Source: an uncultured Nitrososphaerota archaeon
GTDB taxonomy: Archaea; Thermoproteota; Nitrososphaeria; Nitrososphaerales; Gagatemarchaeaceae
Direction of reading: 5' to 3'
DNA: 64,000 nt
Assembly: GCA_963718895.1 (NCBI GenBank)
Contig: CAVRAG010000008.1
Coordinates: forward strand, 192,001 to 256,000
Shown here in pieces: positions 54,932-60,571 of the stretch. Both the position numbers and the translations under genes were made by a program. The notes beneath the pieces are model-generated. The model did not search any database and was not told the origin of the DNA. It was given only the letters and a program-made list of their open reading frames with translations. Numbering within the stretch: the stretch's first letter is position 1; the number at the start of each line of letters is the position of its first letter.

Positions 54932-55062
54932 CGAGGCCGGGCTCTTTGGCTATGGCTATTATTCTTGCGAGCCGGGCTGGATTCTGGCGGAGTCAGGGCG
55001 AGTCCGGCCGAGGGCTCTGTCGAGAGGAGGGGTGCCTATATGCGGACTTGGAGATATTAGTC

Positions 55063-56007
55063 ATGGGACCTCCGAGACACTACAGGCACAGGACGCTCGA
55101 GGAGCGATTGAAGATTCACGCTGAGGTGGCGACGCTTCGCGGTTCGGGCATGACCGTGAAGGAGGTCGCCGACGCGCTTGGAATCAGCAGGCGTGACGTC
55201 AGTTACTGGACGAGGATGAACAAGCCGTCTCGCACCGTCTACAATCCGGACCTCACACCGAGACCTGAGCTCGCGTACCTCGTGGGAGCCTATCTCGGGG
55301 ATGGAAGGACTGCCGGACCGAAGGACAAGAAAGTGAGGTTCAACCTCGCCGACCAGGAGTTCGCGGATCAGCTTAACGAGCTAGTTGCCAAGGTCATCGG
55401 CGCCAGACTGAAGACGGTCCCCGTGGAGGAGGGGTTCCACTCTGTGAGCTACGACTGCGCGGTCCTCTACGATTTTCTCCAACAACCCCTTTCCGCCCAG
55501 ATACCTCTCGCCGAGTCATTCCCGGCAGAGTTTCTTCGCGGATTCTTCGATGCTGAGGGATACGCGTCTCAGACTATCTGGCCAGGGTCGAATGCCCTGA
55601 CAGCCATATGTGTAGGAGCAGCTAACTGCAACCTTGACTACCTCGACCTTGCCCGTCGATTGCTAGCGACCCTCGGGATACCTTCTGAAATCAGGATGAC
55701 GAACAAGGCAGGACAACCCATGGAGATACGCGGCCGAACCTACATCCGCAAGAGGAATGTGTTTCATGTGCGGATCAATGAGGCGGACTACGTCGAGAAG
55801 TTTCGCGATCGAGTGGGTTTCTCCGTTCCCGAGAAGAAGCAGAAACTCGCGGACCTCGTTGCAATAGTGTCCATTCCCGACGAATGGGATCGATACGACC
55901 GCTTCACTGACTTGTATGAGAAGAAGAAGCGCAAATGGATGCGACGAGGCGACGCGAGCAGCAGCAACCATTCTAGCGCTAGCGCTGAAAATAATTCTGC
56001 GCGGTAA
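55063..56007 (+). mobile_element. Free-standing HTH + double-motif LAGLIDADG homing endonuclease (HE2)
   Basis: MTVKEVADALGISRRDVSYW HTH; LAYLVGAYLGDG and FLRGFFDAEG motifs; no intein splice motifs. Confidence 0.85.
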
Positions 56008-56196: not shown

Positions 56197-57243
56197 TTAA
56201 GCGTTTCCGGCGAGATGCGACTCGGATGAGTTTCGGCCCATGGAGATTGGCAGTCCAAGCGCCAGAGCGACGCGCCTGGCGTCGTCCGGCGACGATGCGC
56301 CCTTCACGAGCATCCCTCCGGACCTGAAAAGCGACACCTCGAGGTCCCCGACCCTCGTCATCAGTATCGAGTCGCCCATGCGCTTGGTCCCGTCAACAAG
56401 GCGCCTCGAGAGGCGGTCGAAGGACCGGGGAGGGAACGCGCCGCTCACGTAGAGCTCGTTGCCGCCGCAGAGCTCGACGACCCTGCTGCCGCGGCGGGGA
56501 TGCCGGCCAGACCCGCAGGCCCCGCAGTCGGGACGCCGCTCGAACCGGACCGTGTGCGACTCCATCCTCCGTCCGTCGAAGACGAGCATCGCACCCAGCA
56601 GCCCCGACTCCATCCCCGAGAGGATCTTCACCGCCTCGATCGCCCCGACCGACCCTATGTAGGAGGTGAGCGCGCCCAGCACGCCCACGACCTCGCAGGC
56701 GGGATAGTCCTCGTCCCTCGCCCCCGGGAAGACGCATTCGAAGCAGGCGGTCCTCGGGGACCAGAAGACCCCGGCCGAGGCCTCCCAGCCCAGTCCGCCG
56801 GTGTGGAGCAGCGGTATCCCCCGCGCGACGCAGGCCGCGTTGAGCGCGTACCTCCCCGCGAAGTTGTCGAGGCAGTCGACCGCTATGTCGGCATCGCGAA
56901 TCAGGCGCGGGGCGTTCCCGGTCCCGAGGCTCGCGGCGTGATAGTCCACCACAAGCCCCGGCACCCGCTCCCTCAGGTACCTGGAGACGACCTCTGCCTT
57001 GGACATCCCGACGTCGGCAAGCGTGTAGGTCGGCTGTCTGTGGAGGTTCTCGGCGGAGACGACGTCACGGTCGACGAGGGTCAGCCTCCCGACCCCGGCG
57101 ATGGCGAGGTTGACCGCCACGGAGGACCCGGTGCCTCCGAGGCCAACCACCACCGCGTGGGACCCGGCGAGGCGCCCCTGCCCCTCCCCTCCGAACCCTT
57201 CCAGGGCGATCTGCCTCGAGAAATACAGGCGGTCGTAGGACAA
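56197..57243 (-). CDS. MoeB/ThiF/UbaA family E1-like adenylyltransferase
   Basis: YFSRQ, VVGLGGTG, DRDVVSAENLHRQ, CFEC and CGAC motifs. Confidence 0.9.
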   Translation of the reverse strand: MSYDRLYFSRQIALEGFGGEGQGRLAGSHAVVVGLGGTGSSVAVNLAIAGVGRLTLVDRDVVSAENLHRQPTYTLADVGMSKAEVVSRYLRERVPGLVVDYHAASLGTGNAPRLIRDADIAVDCLDNFAGRYALNAACVARGIPLLHTGGLGWEASAGVFWSPRTACFECVFPGARDEDYPACEVVGVLGALTSYIGSVGAIEAVKILSGMESGLLGAMLVFDGRRMESHTVRFERRPDCGACGSGRHPRRGSRVVELCGGNELYVSGAFPPRSFDRLSRRLVDGTKRMGDSILMTRVGDLEVSLFRSGGMLVKGASSPDDARRVALALGLPISMGRNSSESHLAGNA

Positions 57244-57746: not shown

Positions 57747-58670
57747 TCAGTCCTTCGTCCTTTCGTTGTGAAACAGATACTGCTGGGCGTAGCCAGCGAA
57801 CTCACCGAAGTAAGCGCGGGCGCTCGCCGAGAGGCGGTCGTAGGTCGCCAGCGAGAGGCTCGTCCGGCCCGAGACGTTTGAAGCAAGCCTCTCTCTGAGG
57901 TCCTCGGCGAAGAGGTGCGGGTAGTAGTCCCCCAGGACCCTCGCTACCCAGACGTCTATGGGGAACGCCGAGTCCTTGTCGCAGGAGAAGAGCAGGACGC
58001 AGTCGGCGACCTTGGGCCCGATGCCCATCAGCGTCTTCCTCTCAGGGAGCTCCTCGATCAGCAGGTCCCTGGCCCTGGGGTAGTCGAAGAGGCGCAGCTC
58101 GTCCAGGTTCACCCTGCCCAGATAGACGGACTCGGCTATGGACTTCACGAACTTCGCCCTGTACCCGAGGCCGCATGCGACCAGGTCTGGGAGCTCGGCC
58201 TCGGCGAGCCTCTCGGGGCTGGGGAAGAGCGAGTAGGTCTCTCCCTCGAAGGCGACGGGCTCGCCAAGCCGCTTGCAGACGTTCGAGACCATCCCCCTAA
58301 TCCGGGGGATGTTGGAGTTCGTGGCTATGGCGAAGGAGATGAGGCACTCCCAGACCTCCTGCTTCAGCAGGCGGAGCCCGTAGAACTTCTGGACCGCTTC
58401 GGTGATCCTCTCGTCCTTCATTATCGAGGCGAGGATCCGCTCGAGGTCCACTCCTAGCCCCAGGTAGTTGTAGACGGTGCGGCTGTTGAGGGCGTCCGAG
58501 GACGAGACGCAGACGAGGGCCGCGCCCTCCTGCTTGAGCTTGACGACGCCTGGGCCAAGGACCCCGTACCACCACTCGCCCCTCTCGTTCCAGCGGAAGG
58601 ACTGGCCGGACTCCAGCGTGTAGCGGAGGTTGAAGGGGAGGCCCTCGGTGTTGATGGTGAACTCGCCCAT
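57747..58670 (-). CDS. OGG1-type 8-oxoguanine DNA glycosylase
   Basis: TLESGQSFRW, ECLISF, GLGYRA, GIGPKVADC, FPIDVW and GYAQQYLF motifs. Confidence 0.9.
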   Translation of the reverse strand: MGEFTINTEGLPFNLRYTLESGQSFRWNERGEWWYGVLGPGVVKLKQEGAALVCVSSSDALNSRTVYNYLGLGVDLERILASIMKDERITEAVQKFYGLRLLKQEVWECLISFAIATNSNIPRIRGMVSNVCKRLGEPVAFEGETYSLFPSPERLAEAELPDLVACGLGYRAKFVKSIAESVYLGRVNLDELRLFDYPRARDLLIEELPERKTLMGIGPKVADCVLLFSCDKDSAFPIDVWVARVLGDYYPHLFAEDLRERLASNVSGRTSLSLATYDRLSASARAYFGEFAGYAQQYLFHNERTKD

Positions 58671-58807
58671 CCGCCCTTCTCGAGGGTGGACTCTCTATAA
58701 AAGAATCCAAGCATGGCTCGAGAAGGCTCAGCCCAGACAGTCGTGATGTGGATTGGCGCTTAAATGCGGTGCGAAGTTCGAGTCCGACGACTCTTGGAGG
58801 GACTGGC

Positions 58808-59926
58808 CTGACGGAGGCATCCGACGCTACACCAAGCGGCAAGGAAGGAGCACAGCAGACCTCGACGGACTTCACCGAGGATGAAAGGGAAGTCCTGGAT
58901 TTTCTGGCGAACTCGAAGAGGGTCGACCTCAGGTGGCTGAACGAGGACAGGAAAACGAAGATCAAGACGGTAATCGACGGGCTGCACAACGGCAAGAAGC
59001 TCTCGCTCCTGCAGATCTCGAAAGAGGTCGGGAGGTCCTACATGGCGATCTGGGGCCTGTGCCGAGCGCTGGAGATTCGGACGAGGAGCGTGGCCGAGGC
59101 CCAGAGCAACTCCGCCGAGTCCAGGTCGAAGCACAAGCGGAGGCCGTTCGGCGGGACCGAGGAGGATCGAGCGTACATGCTCGGGTTCAAGAACGGCGAC
59201 CTGACGGCGTGGCAGGTGAGCGGGACAGCGGTGATGGTAACGTCGACAACAACGCACCCCGCGTTCGCGGAGCTCTTCCGCGAGCTCTTCCGAGAATATG
59301 GGCACGTCTACGAGTACCCGATGTACGAGGAGGGGAAGGGATACAAATGGAAGCTCGCGGTGAGGCTCGACAACAGCTTCAGGTTCCTTCTAAAACCGGC
59401 CGTCGAAGCGGTCCAGGAGCTCTCGGCAGAGAGGTCGACGTACCTCAGTTGGCTCGCGGGTCTAGTCGATAGCGACGGGAACATATACGTTTCAGGAGGT
59501 CGCGGCTCTCCAAGGATACGCGTTGGCATTTACAACAGTGATGTGCCTCTCCTGAAGTCAATCATCACGGAGAGCAGAAAGATCCAATATGATTTCGACG
59601 GACCGTACCTCTTGAAGGAGAAAGGTACCGTTACTCCGTTCGGCATTAGGTACACTAGGGATCTCTGGCATATCGATGTCCAGCAGACCTGGTCGGCGCA
59701 GCGATTACTCCTTGAGCTCCCGATCAGACACGCTGAGAAACTTCGCCGCAAGTCGCTAGGGTTGCAGGTAGGCCGCCGACCTTGGAGCGAGATTGAAGCG
59801 GAGTTCCTGGAACTCAGAAAGGCGATACGGAGAGAAGTTGACGAGTTCCTTGCCGAGGCCGAGGAGCGCTACAGGAACAATCACGGATTTCCGGGCGACA
59901 GCACAAGTACTGAAGATCGCACCTAG
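58808..59926 (+). mobile_element. Free-standing HTH + double-motif LAGLIDADG homing endonuclease (HE3); start uncertain (CTG 58808 or GTG 58748)
   Basis: LSLLQISKEVGRS HTH; AYMLGFKNGDL and SWLAGLVDSDG motifs; LPIRHAEK. Confidence 0.85.
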
Positions 59927-59959
59927 ACCTCAGCGGAAGATAGGAAGTGAGGAGTGGAG

Positions 59960-60571
59960 CTACTTCGATGCCTTCTGGAAGCGCTTCCCCACGTCTTCCC
60001 AGTTGACGACGTTCCACCAGGCCTCTACGTACTTGCCCCTGTCGTTCAGGTACTGGAGATAATATGCATGTTCCCAGACGTCACACCCGAGCAGTATCGG
60101 CAGCTCCGGCAGGTGCATGAAGTTCTGCTTCTCGACCTGGGTCAGGACGAGGGAGTCGATCTCGTGGTCGTAGAGCAGGAGCGCCCACCCAGAACCCTCG
60201 ACCGCCTTCGCGGCGTCGCTGAACTGGGCCTTGAACTTGTCGAAGGACCCGAAGTCCTGGGTGATCTTGTCGGCGAGCTTCCCGGTCGGCGCGCCGCCTC
60301 CTCCCTTCCCCGCGGCGGCCATGTTCATCCAGAAGATAGAGTGCAGCTTGTGTCCGCCGACGTTGAAGGAGAGGTCCCTGAGGGTCCCCTTGATGTCGAT
60401 CTGGAGGGTCCCTGCACGGGCCTTCTCGAGCTTGTCGAGGGCCGCGTTCGCACCCGTCACGTAGGCGTTGTGGTGCTTGTCGTGGTGCAGCGTCATGATC
60501 TGCTTCGAGATATACGGCTCGAGCGCTTCATAGGGATATGGTAACGGTGGCAGCGTGTAGGTCTTTGCCAT
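59960..60571 (-). CDS. sod: Fe/Mn superoxide dismutase
   Basis: LHHDKHH, GHKLHSIFW, GSGW and DVWEHAYY motifs. Confidence 0.97.
   Translation of the reverse strand: MAKTYTLPPLPYPYEALEPYISKQIMTLHHDKHHNAYVTGANAALDKLEKARAGTLQIDIKGTLRDLSFNVGGHKLHSIFWMNMAAAGKGGGGAPTGKLADKITQDFGSFDKFKAQFSDAAKAVEGSGWALLLYDHEIDSLVLTQVEKQNFMHLPELPILLGCDVWEHAYYLQYLNDRGKYVEAWWNVVNWEDVGKRFQKASK

Follow-up and report, generated by a model that had tools for sequence, protein, structure and literature searches.

A free-standing LAGLIDADG gene behind sod in Nitrososphaerales-type archaea and its possible imprint on the codons of the sod ligand motif

The sod-ogg locus

We analysed a window of 64,000 nucleotides from an uncultured soil archaeon of the Nitrososphaerota (G000:C8:192001-256000, where G000 is the window's own genome, a 3.1-Mb assembly in 11 contigs with a base composition of 62% G+C). 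The subject is HE3, a free-standing gene similar to genes of LAGLIDADG homing endonucleases (HE), together with a patch of codons in its neighbour sod, which encodes an Fe/Mn superoxide dismutase. The window is always the whole stretch, and positions are counted from its first letter. The locus contains the following features.

59960..60571, minus strand: sod, Fe/Mn superoxide dismutase, 203 amino acids (Pfam Sod_Fe_N, E 6e-33; Sod_Fe_C, E 3e-37)
58748..59926, plus strand: HE3, free-standing LAGLIDADG homing-endonuclease-like gene, 392 amino acids (open reading frame, fold, profile)
59927..59959, no strand: spacer of 33 bp between the convergent stop codons of HE3 and sod
57747..58670, minus strand: ogg, 8-oxoguanine DNA glycosylase, the other flank of the HE3 insertion (Pfam OGG_N and HhH-GPD)

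The ogg gene lies downstream of sod on the same strand, and a transaldolase gene lies upstream of sod. HE3 is a separate open reading frame (ORF) between sod and ogg, with spacers of 33 bp and 77 bp, and is situated outside any intron or intein. The C-terminal part of the dismutase contains the D-x-W-E-H ligand motif. Its residues D164 and H168, which we take to be metal ligands, lie within CDVWEHAYY.

HE3 as a LAGLIDADG protein

HE3 was modelled with AlphaFold2 using 38 homologues (mean predicted local distance difference test score, pLDDT, 88.5). Foldseek comparison of the model with the PDB gave 130 matches at E <= 0.001. The top listed matches are all LAGLIDADG enzymes or maturases (E 3e-7 to 6e-5, probability 1.00), the best fold matches being I-HjeMI, the bI3 maturase, I-Tsp061I, I-AniI and I-DmoI. 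The HE3 family profile, run against PDB sequences, retrieved I-CreI-derived, I-AniI and I-HjeMI chains (E 3.5e-7 to 6e-6), with matches that run through the second motif, WLAGLVDSDG. Pfam LAGLIDADG_3 (PF14528) matches HE3 at E 0.003 and 18.2 bits, under the gathering cut-off of 22.5 bits, and some HE3 homologues have a precomputed PF14528 match. The source records of the close homologues name metagenome-assembled genomes of Thaumarchaeota or Nitrososphaerales.

The model contains helices at residues 138-151 and 229-243, each followed by a pair of strands. This agrees with the two alpha-beta-beta-alpha-beta-beta-alpha domains of the family, in which the LAGLIDADG helices are packed together. 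Two LAGLIDADG motifs and an additional N-terminal region can be delimited.

59174..59200, plus strand: LAGLIDADG motif 1, Y-M-L-G-F-K-N-G-D, residues 143-151, ending in Asp151
59453..59479, plus strand: LAGLIDADG motif 2, L-A-G-L-V-D-S-D-G, residues 236-244, ending in Asp243-Gly244
58877..59125, plus strand: N-terminal helical region, residues 44-126 (helices of the model)

Motif 1 forms the C-terminal end of helix 138-151 and is followed by a strand; G146, G150 and D151 are invariant in the 38 homologues. In motif 2, A237, G238 and G244 are invariant, and D241 and D243 are at least 90% conserved. This motif aligns with the I-CreI-type motif LAGFVD(G/S)DG. The Asp positions of both motifs are presumably catalytic, as in I-CreI. 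According to the model, HE3 is a LAGLIDADG protein with two domains in a single chain, and it retains the Asp residues at both catalytic positions. It had been called a LAGLIDADG protein in an earlier note on this DNA, made without database searches, and the fold, the profile matches and the conservation of both Asp residues confirm this. HE3 is probably an active homing endonuclease.

The N-terminal region consists of predicted helices at residues 44-55, 66-82, 87-94, 98-107 and 115-126. It has weak profile matches to the helix-turn-helix (HTH) chains of Lrp and XylR (E 0.26-0.29) and is probably an extra DNA-binding, HTH-like module. Residues 1-36 are disordered in the model; as they are also unconserved and have low pLDDT, the start codon of HE3 is uncertain.

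HE3 is tied to the 3' end of sod

The spread of the HE3 family was initially analysed in 61 genomes (own, genus, family, order). Matches were found only in the window's own family, in 28 of its 36 other members and in none of the 24 genomes of other families; four members are present in G000. In the first set of 30 sod loci, an HE3 orthologue is convergent with sod at its 3' end in 11. In nine genomes of the same genus that lack HE3, ogg follows sod directly after a gap of 70-250 bp. As only the gap is present at these empty sites, HE3 is seen to be an insertion of about 1.2 kb, little more than its own ORF.

The family-wide search covered 97 genomes, 84 of them with sod, and 83 loci were examined. 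Four loci with a two-piece sod (G021, G020, G010 and G031) were set aside, leaving 79. Fifteen of the 79 have a convergent HE3 at the 3' end of sod, as does G021. At four further loci (G030, G079, G082, G069) the same place is occupied by an intact gene of a second LAGLIDADG family, and at one (G029) by a frameshifted pseudogene of that family; 55 loci have neither and four have too little downstream DNA. Twelve metagenome contigs contain an HE3 orthologue, and in all ten that are long enough there is a convergent sod next to it. In the protein tree, the 16 sod-adjacent HE3 orthologues form one clade (98/97), apart from the paralogues found elsewhere. The association of HE3 with the sod 3' flank holds across six genera and in metagenomes. 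Judging from these sequences, HE3 is a locus-specific free-standing LAGLIDADG gene with signs of mobility, whose lineage has specialised in a single chromosomal site, the sod-ogg gap just downstream of sod.

The presence of HE3 is patchy. Mapped on the 78-row sod tree, it requires at least nine changes, seven of which are forced by well-supported branches. The HE3 copy is broken in G021 and split in G002. In G061 (L082), otherwise scored as HE-free, a C-terminal remnant of 46-55 amino acids, 45% identical to the G023 orthologue (E 1.5e-5), lies within about 150 bp at the sod stop codon. No HE remnant was found behind sod of the HE-free genomes G007, G013, G004 and G015.

Homing endonucleases reportedly follow the cyclical model of gain, decay and loss of Goddard and Burt. 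The locus resembles this model in that intact genes, frameshifted or split ones (G021, G002 and, in the second family, G029), a remnant (G061) and empty sites coexist. Unlike in the model, the HE and sod trees broadly agree across genera, which speaks for a long vertical residence with losses no less than for repeated invasion.

The same long residence could reflect a host function. HE3 would then be a domesticated DNA-binding protein of the WhiA type, combining an HTH module with a LAGLIDADG scaffold, and the codons of sod would have nothing to do with it. Like WhiA, HE3 is a chromosomal gene with these two components. WhiA is not known to have the acidic residues needed for catalysis, and its HTH is C-terminal; HE3, in contrast, keeps both Asp residues, has its extra domain at the N-terminus and is patchily distributed. 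Co-residence with sod in six genera, broadly parallel HE and sod trees, intact reading frames in most copies, the added N-terminal helical domain, and paralogue groups each bound to one housekeeping neighbour (sod, ferredoxin, nuoD) would all be expected of a host gene. The conservation of both catalytic Asp residues across 38 homologues would not, nor would the patchy presence, which needs at least nine changes on the sod tree and includes broken copies, a remnant and empty sites. Moreover, the C-terminal domains of close relatives are only 34-55% identical, unlike those of a conserved regulator. Domestication is thus highly improbable.

The three further HE3-family genes of G000 are at L002 (G000:C8:657586-661365), L003 (G000:C8:1598498-1602289) and L004 (G000:C1:57914-61681). 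One of the three is convergent with nuoD across a 70-bp gap, another is flanked by alba and a dinB-like gene for a Y-family polymerase, and the third is broken by stop codons. A separate group of HE3-like orthologues (L046, L047, L049, L051, L053) is convergent with a gene for a 2x[4Fe-4S] ferredoxin of 145-156 amino acids in five of the five loci checked.

The two-piece sod genes, frameshifted or truncated, are at L114 (G020), L115 (G010), L116 (G031) and L030 (G021). In G010 ogg is split too. Such genes may be assembly errors or cases of real decay.

The codon patch in sod

Codons 163-171 of sod, encoding C-D-V-W-E-H-A-Y-Y, are TGT GAC GTC TGG GAA CAT GCA TAT TAT. The last five form the patch.

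60059..60073, minus strand: five A/T-ending codons in a row, GAA CAT GCA TAT TAT (E167-Y171)

In the earlier note, the patch was interpreted as a synonymously recoded, immunised target of HE3. Its codons, 167-171 at 60059-60073 on the minus strand, were described correctly, and the distance to the HE3 stop codon, given as about 135 bp, is 133 bp when measured to the last base of that codon (59926). The description of the rest of the gene as mostly using gag, cac, gcc and tac applies to all but one of these residues. Of the 204 sod codons, stop included, 27 end in A or T; His is encoded once by CAT (in the patch) and eight times by CAC, Glu by three GAA and seven GAG, and Ala by four GCA and 17 GCC or GCG. 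However, Tyr is encoded equally by TAT and TAC (five each), and the three TAT codons outside the patch sit in a second A/T-ending cluster at codons 8-20.

The probability of a run of at least five anywhere in sod, a check proposed in the earlier note, is 0.005 under shuffling of the A/T-ending labels and 0.011 when identical residues exchange their synonymous codons at random. The probability that all five codons of E-H-A-Y-Y end in A or T is 0.0015. On the other hand, a mechanical count yields ten runs of at least five in the 57 ORFs of the window with a high G+C content at third codon positions (GC3), 17,649 codons in total; some of the ten are in doubtful or spurious N-terminal extensions, e.g. 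upstream of CTP synthase. Run length was therefore rejected as stand-alone evidence. By itself, the A/T-ending run is unremarkable once the search space is allowed for. Besides, E, H, Y and Y have two-fold codons, and in a GC3-saturated gene any synonymous change at them ends in A or T.

One conceivable cause is a promoter. The A/T-rich GCATATTAT(T)TG on the sense strand of sod could be an internal TATA-like element, whose transcript would run antisense into HE3 and damp its expression. The changes do create a local A/T-rich stretch of 9-12 nucleotides in a genome with 62% G+C; the stretch is common to the HE-bearing sisters, and it points toward HE3, which is 133 bp downstream on the opposite strand. 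However, the HE-bearing sods of genus g9 have no such box, base composition is uninformative where the only synonymous option ends in A or T, and there is no RNA among the public runs listed. A promoter is the least credible of the explanations considered here.

The patch is not peculiar to this assembly, as it is present in a 315-nt contig of a public run that covers 59925-60239 with one difference, although this run is possibly the assembly's own source. A 106-nt public contig of a relative has CTC, GAG and TAC at three codons of the patch region. The largest share of sampled words in a public run was 0.15, and none reached half. An HE-less sod-ogg junction was bridged by none of the short public-read contigs.

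Changes at the motif in HE-bearing and HE-free clades

In the first set of 30 sods, nearly all HE-free genes have GGG CTC GAC GTC TGG GAG CAC GCC TAC TAC CTC CAG TAC TGG AAC GAC at this place. In HE-adjacent sods both codons and residues are changed: GL is replaced by GC, SI, SA or CN, V by C, Q, E, L or A, and there are further replacements of W by F, Y by F, and W by L or F. The density of mismatches in codons 162-177 relative to the rest of the gene exceeds 1.15 in every one of the 11 HE3-adjacent sods; among the 19 others, it is below 1 in 14. The five exceptions include G030 and G029, both of which have the second LAGLIDADG family.

Parsimony steps were counted only within clades uniform for the HE state, which avoids confounding by differences between clades. 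In the 30-genome set, the ratio of steps in HE-bearing to steps in HE-free clades has a single sharp peak of 3.3 at codons 165-174 (Fisher P 0.003 for codons 163-171 and 1e-5 for codons 162-177). No excess was observed in this set at codons 179-190 or 191-203, the stretches nearer HE3, or at the N-terminal ligand motif HHDKHH, which has the same two-fold codon types (ratio 0.75). The fast region can be delimited as follows.

60032..60091, minus strand: sod codons 161-180, faster in HE-bearing clades, candidate HE3 recognition region

In the 78-sod set, the ratio of this region to the rest of the gene is 2.15, 2.12, 0.91 and 2.19 in the HE-bearing groups, that is, the region evolves about twice as fast as the rest of sod in three of the four. 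In the HE-free groups the ratios are 0.67, 0.42, 0.57, 0.75, 0.31, 0.87, 1.21, 0.54, 0, 2.02 and 1.79 (median 0.67), and the region is slower in 8 of these 11 clades. The difference is supported by both the Mann-Whitney test (P 0.005) and the Fisher test (P 0.004). The consensus DNA is also distributed unevenly. At most six mismatches to the 48-nt HE-free consensus are seen in none of the 26 HE3-adjacent sods and in 12 of the 54 HE-free ones, and the exact 15-mer GAGCACGCCTACTAC occurs in 8 of the 54 HE-free sods, but in none of the 26 HE3-adjacent ones and none of the five adjacent to the second family.

The sods of genus g9 are found in three deep clades of the sod tree, which suggests sod transfer or old paralogy within the family. 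One genome of this genus, G114, has two sods with different motif classes (L078, L099).

History of the patch

The codons GCA TAT TAT, mostly followed by TTG, are common to G000, its HE-bearing sisters G001 and G011, and the metagenome loci L148 and L149. In L149 the consensus protein motif GLDVWEHAYYLQYWND is kept and A-Y-Y-L is encoded by GCA TAT TAT TTG. The nearest HE-free relatives, the sister pair G004/G015, have GAG CAC GCC TAC TAC followed by CTG. Within its clade, G000 alone has the codons GAA and CAT; the same two are present in G002 (HE-bearing) and G013 (HE-free).

Two points of the earlier note have to be considered in this light. The recoding was said to be synonymous. It is so in L149, where the protein motif is unchanged, but in other HE-adjacent sods neighbouring residues change too. 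Occurrence of the same codons in HE-free relatives had been named as grounds for abandoning the immunity interpretation. The closest HE-free pair has GAG CAC GCC TAC TAC, but HE-free G007, G013 and many g9 genomes share some of the codons, so that this objection applies in part.

Recombination has also affected the other end of the gene.

60497..60571, minus strand: sod codons 1-25, G002-like gene-conversion tract, holding the other A/T-ending cluster

Here G000 has three differences in 75 nt to G002 and 11-14 to G011, G001 and G004. As these codons are nearly G002-like, the sod gene of G000 is a recombination mosaic.

Such mosaicism fits a model without HE3, in which the enzyme evolves and sod alleles recombine in the ordinary way, sod types (differing, e.g., in metal preference) swapping short tracts. 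There are discrete motif classes that differ in protein sequence (e.g. CSDLWEHAFYAQ, GIDLWEHAWVHD, GLDAWEHAYLYDVGPD), many of them without an adjacent HE. The g9 sods are in three deep clades and G114 has two, the conversion tract at codons 1-25 is distant from HE3, and GAA CAT is the G002/G013 state. However, this model leaves unexplained the purely synonymous recoding, seen in L149 and in the GCA TAT TAT of four further HE-bearing sods, the presence of two LAGLIDADG families at the 3' end of the same gene, and the fact that the canonical DNA is never found beside HE3. We regard it as improbable.

Mosaic endonuclease alleles and the limits of exchange

The C-terminal LAGLIDADG domain (HE3 residues about 218-392, window 59400-59926) is highly variable. 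The N-terminal HTH-like parts of the HE proteins are 82% identical in the pair G011/G001 and 92% identical in G003/G021, and the C-terminal domains of the same pairs are 37% identical. Within the genus, identity is 58-84% in domain 1 and 34-55% in domain 2 in nearly all pairs, the latter being similar to the level between genera. The trees also disagree for G001, whose HE groups with that of G005 and whose sod groups with those of G011 and G000. The variability of domain 2 was considered as a possible sign of selection on DNA contacts, and this was rejected as a specific argument, since helices are no less variable than strands (identity 25-48% and 33-46%, respectively).

Sliding comparison of G001 and G011 gives 82-100% identity through ogg and the HE N-terminus. 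Identity falls to 35-65% from about 59230 to 59975 and returns to 83-97% inside sod. The divergent block extends from the late part of domain 1 through domain 2 and the tail, across the spacer, to the last codons of sod. A continuous co-conversion tract from the motif to HE3 was not seen in this pair. Instead, there is a small separate dip at 60036-60095, observed in all three pairs of G000, G001 and G011 (82, 72 and 87%). Being separate from the block, the motif is a hot spot of its own and does not mark where an unbroken conversion tract ends. Such a pattern suits selection on a recognition sequence, but the boundary of the block at the sod stop codon could equally suggest a cut there.

Is the patch a resistant target?

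The best single explanation of these data is that the patch is a resistant form of the candidate target of HE3. We consider it plausible but not yet probable, because the comparative signals weaken in the larger sample and fail a strict test of independence.

Several observations weigh against it. In the 78-sod set, the peak of the HE-bearing to HE-free step ratio falls to 1.5. The Fisher and Mann-Whitney tests treat related lineages and steps as independent, and the region of codons 161-180 was chosen after the data had been seen, only the coordinates 163-171 being set a priori. One HE-bearing group (G118, G080, G086, G030, G079) shows no acceleration (the ratio of 0.91 above), and three of the 11 HE-free groups have ratios above 1.2. 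In eight phylogenetically independent pairs of HE-bearing and HE-free sods, the median sign-test P is 0.63 and 0.25, although the direction favours resistance (A/T excess 3.6 vs 1.4; mismatch 3.1 vs 0.3). Variant motifs are common without HE3: 42 of the 54 HE-free sods have at least seven mismatches to the 48-nt consensus, many HE-free g9 sods have other motif classes, and HE-free G007 and G013 have GAA CAC GCA TAT TAC and GAA CAT GCA TTT TAC, respectively. The divergent block of G001/G011 ends at the sod stop codon, which leaves about 85 bp between it and the motif, and the C-terminal domain is variable throughout, which allele swapping or relaxed constraint would explain as well as selection on DNA contacts. 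To these are added the ten runs in the ORFs of the window.

The flank of the ferredoxin gene served as a replicate (30 loci, L117-L146: 12 with an intact HE, three with fragments, 15 without HE). It shows no HE-specific signal, which neither supports nor refutes the resistance of the patch. The C-terminal Fe-S motif of ferredoxin has the same protein sequence with and without HE, and the last 13 or so ferredoxin codons are dense in synonymous differences in HE-bearing and HE-free pairs alike.

The main rival also accepts homing to the sod flank, but places the site elsewhere, at the sod stop codon or sod-ogg junction, or in the variable C-terminal tail of sod. The patch would then be inherited drift, three changes on one ancestral branch and two later, with no role in immunity. 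This agrees with the end of the divergent HE-allele block at the last sod codons, about 59975 and not at the motif, and with the differentiation between groups, which is stronger at codons 192-203 than at the motif. GCA TAT TAT is a shared derived state of one clade and may be a single event, and the insignificant independent pairs, the comparable runs of the window and the frequent variant motifs of HE-free sods also fit drift. It is harder to reconcile with drift that acceleration within HE-bearing clades peaks at codons 161-180 and is absent at 179-203, with agreement of three of the four groups, that the consensus motif DNA is found in 0 of 26 HE3-adjacent sods, that L149 is recoded synonymously with its protein unchanged, and that no effect is seen at the N-terminal ligand motif, which is made of the same codon types. 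A site away from the motif is possible, but on balance rather unlikely.

The immunised target of the earlier note retains the hot spot of the HE-bearing clades, centred on the motif, in its favour, and has the eight insignificant pairs and the block ending at the sod stop codon against it.

If the patch is a resistant target, HE3 could persist by intronless homing. The putative cut would be made in HE-less alleles, within the conserved portion of sod toward its 3' end, where D-x-W-E-H-A-Y-Y is encoded or close by, some 85-135 bp away from the HE3 gene. Repair from an HE-bearing copy would drag the HE gene into the recipient. Carriers would have to keep a version of the motif that their own enzyme cannot cut, and GAA CAT GCA TAT TAT would be such a putatively resistant carrier state. 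Its GCA TAT TAT part may have been inherited from the ancestor of the HE-bearing clade, and GAA CAT may be a later addition, due to mutation or to micro-conversion from a G002-like allele.

Comparison with known systems

The closest analogy to the behaviour proposed for HE3 is the intronless homing of free-standing phage endonucleases. Phage enzymes of this kind cut hundreds of bp from their own genes, inside neighbouring conserved genes (PMC2988022), and in the case of SegF, SegG and MobE of T-even phages, known for intronless homing and marker exclusion, repair carries the endonuclease gene together with flanking markers into the recipient. HE3 similarly stands alone between conserved genes and is present or absent at the same place in relatives, and its candidate site, 85-135 bp away, is likewise inside a neighbouring conserved gene. 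The T-even phage enzymes are of the GIY-YIG or HNH type and act during co-infection, whereas HE3 has a LAGLIDADG fold and resides in a cellular archaeal chromosome. Also unlike in phages, the only clear recombinant block has its boundary at the sod stop codon, and cleavage and co-conversion by HE3 are putative.

In its architecture, with two LAGLIDADG domains per chain and acidic helix ends, HE3 resembles I-DmoI, I-Tsp061I, I-AniI, the I-OnuI family and PI-SceI. Single-chain LAGLIDADG enzymes recognise about 18-22 bp, often in the coding sequence of conserved motifs, and tolerate wobble changes. LAGLIDADG homing endonucleases cut both DNA strands at a specific site and leave 3' overhangs of 4 nt. 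Unlike the single-chain enzymes of introns and inteins, HE3 is not within an intron or intein, has an extra N-terminal helical domain of about 90 residues, and has its candidate target off its insertion point; sequence similarity is low.

Homing endonucleases have mostly been studied in introns and inteins or as free-standing phage genes. The titles and abstracts listed for free-standing archaeal LAGLIDADG genes, for intronless homing and for LAGLIDADG in Nitrososphaerales, the last of which concern Poseidoniales viruses, describe neither a LAGLIDADG gene beside sod nor such genes in Nitrososphaerales chromosomes. Irrespective of cleavage, there are locus-specific LAGLIDADG lineages behind sod, ferredoxin and nuoD genes in Nitrososphaerales-type archaea.

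If the patch is indeed a resistant target, HE3 would be an example of intronless homing by a LAGLIDADG enzyme in the chromosomes of archaea, and the enzyme alleles with their matching target variants would form a natural series. Such a series would show how selfish nucleases persist in cellular genomes and in what way they skew the codon usage, and even the protein sequence, of conserved motifs. It would also offer meganuclease engineering a number of related specificities, and would account in concrete terms for isolated stretches of "wrong" codons in strongly conserved genes.

A generalisation can be formulated, which we consider doubtful. In this archaeal family, free-standing LAGLIDADG lineages, each bound to a single housekeeping gene (sod, ferredoxin, nuoD) at its 3' end, might be in a running conflict with the DNA of the catalytic motif of that gene. 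Alleles with swapped C-terminal recognition domains would re-invade escaped sites and thus force repeated synonymous recoding, and even amino acid replacement, in the ligand motif of the dismutase. The active-site sequence of a core enzyme would in that case be moulded by a selfish nuclease in cellular chromosomes.

A second LAGLIDADG gene in the window

The window contains another LAGLIDADG gene, of a different family, at 54946-56007 on the plus strand (PF14528, E 3.6e-15), with an N-terminal HTH and a GC3 of 0.67. It belongs to the second family that is found behind sod in G030, G079, G082 and G069 and, as a pseudogene, in G029. It is convergent with a ThiF/MoeB-like gene at 56197-57243 on the minus strand.

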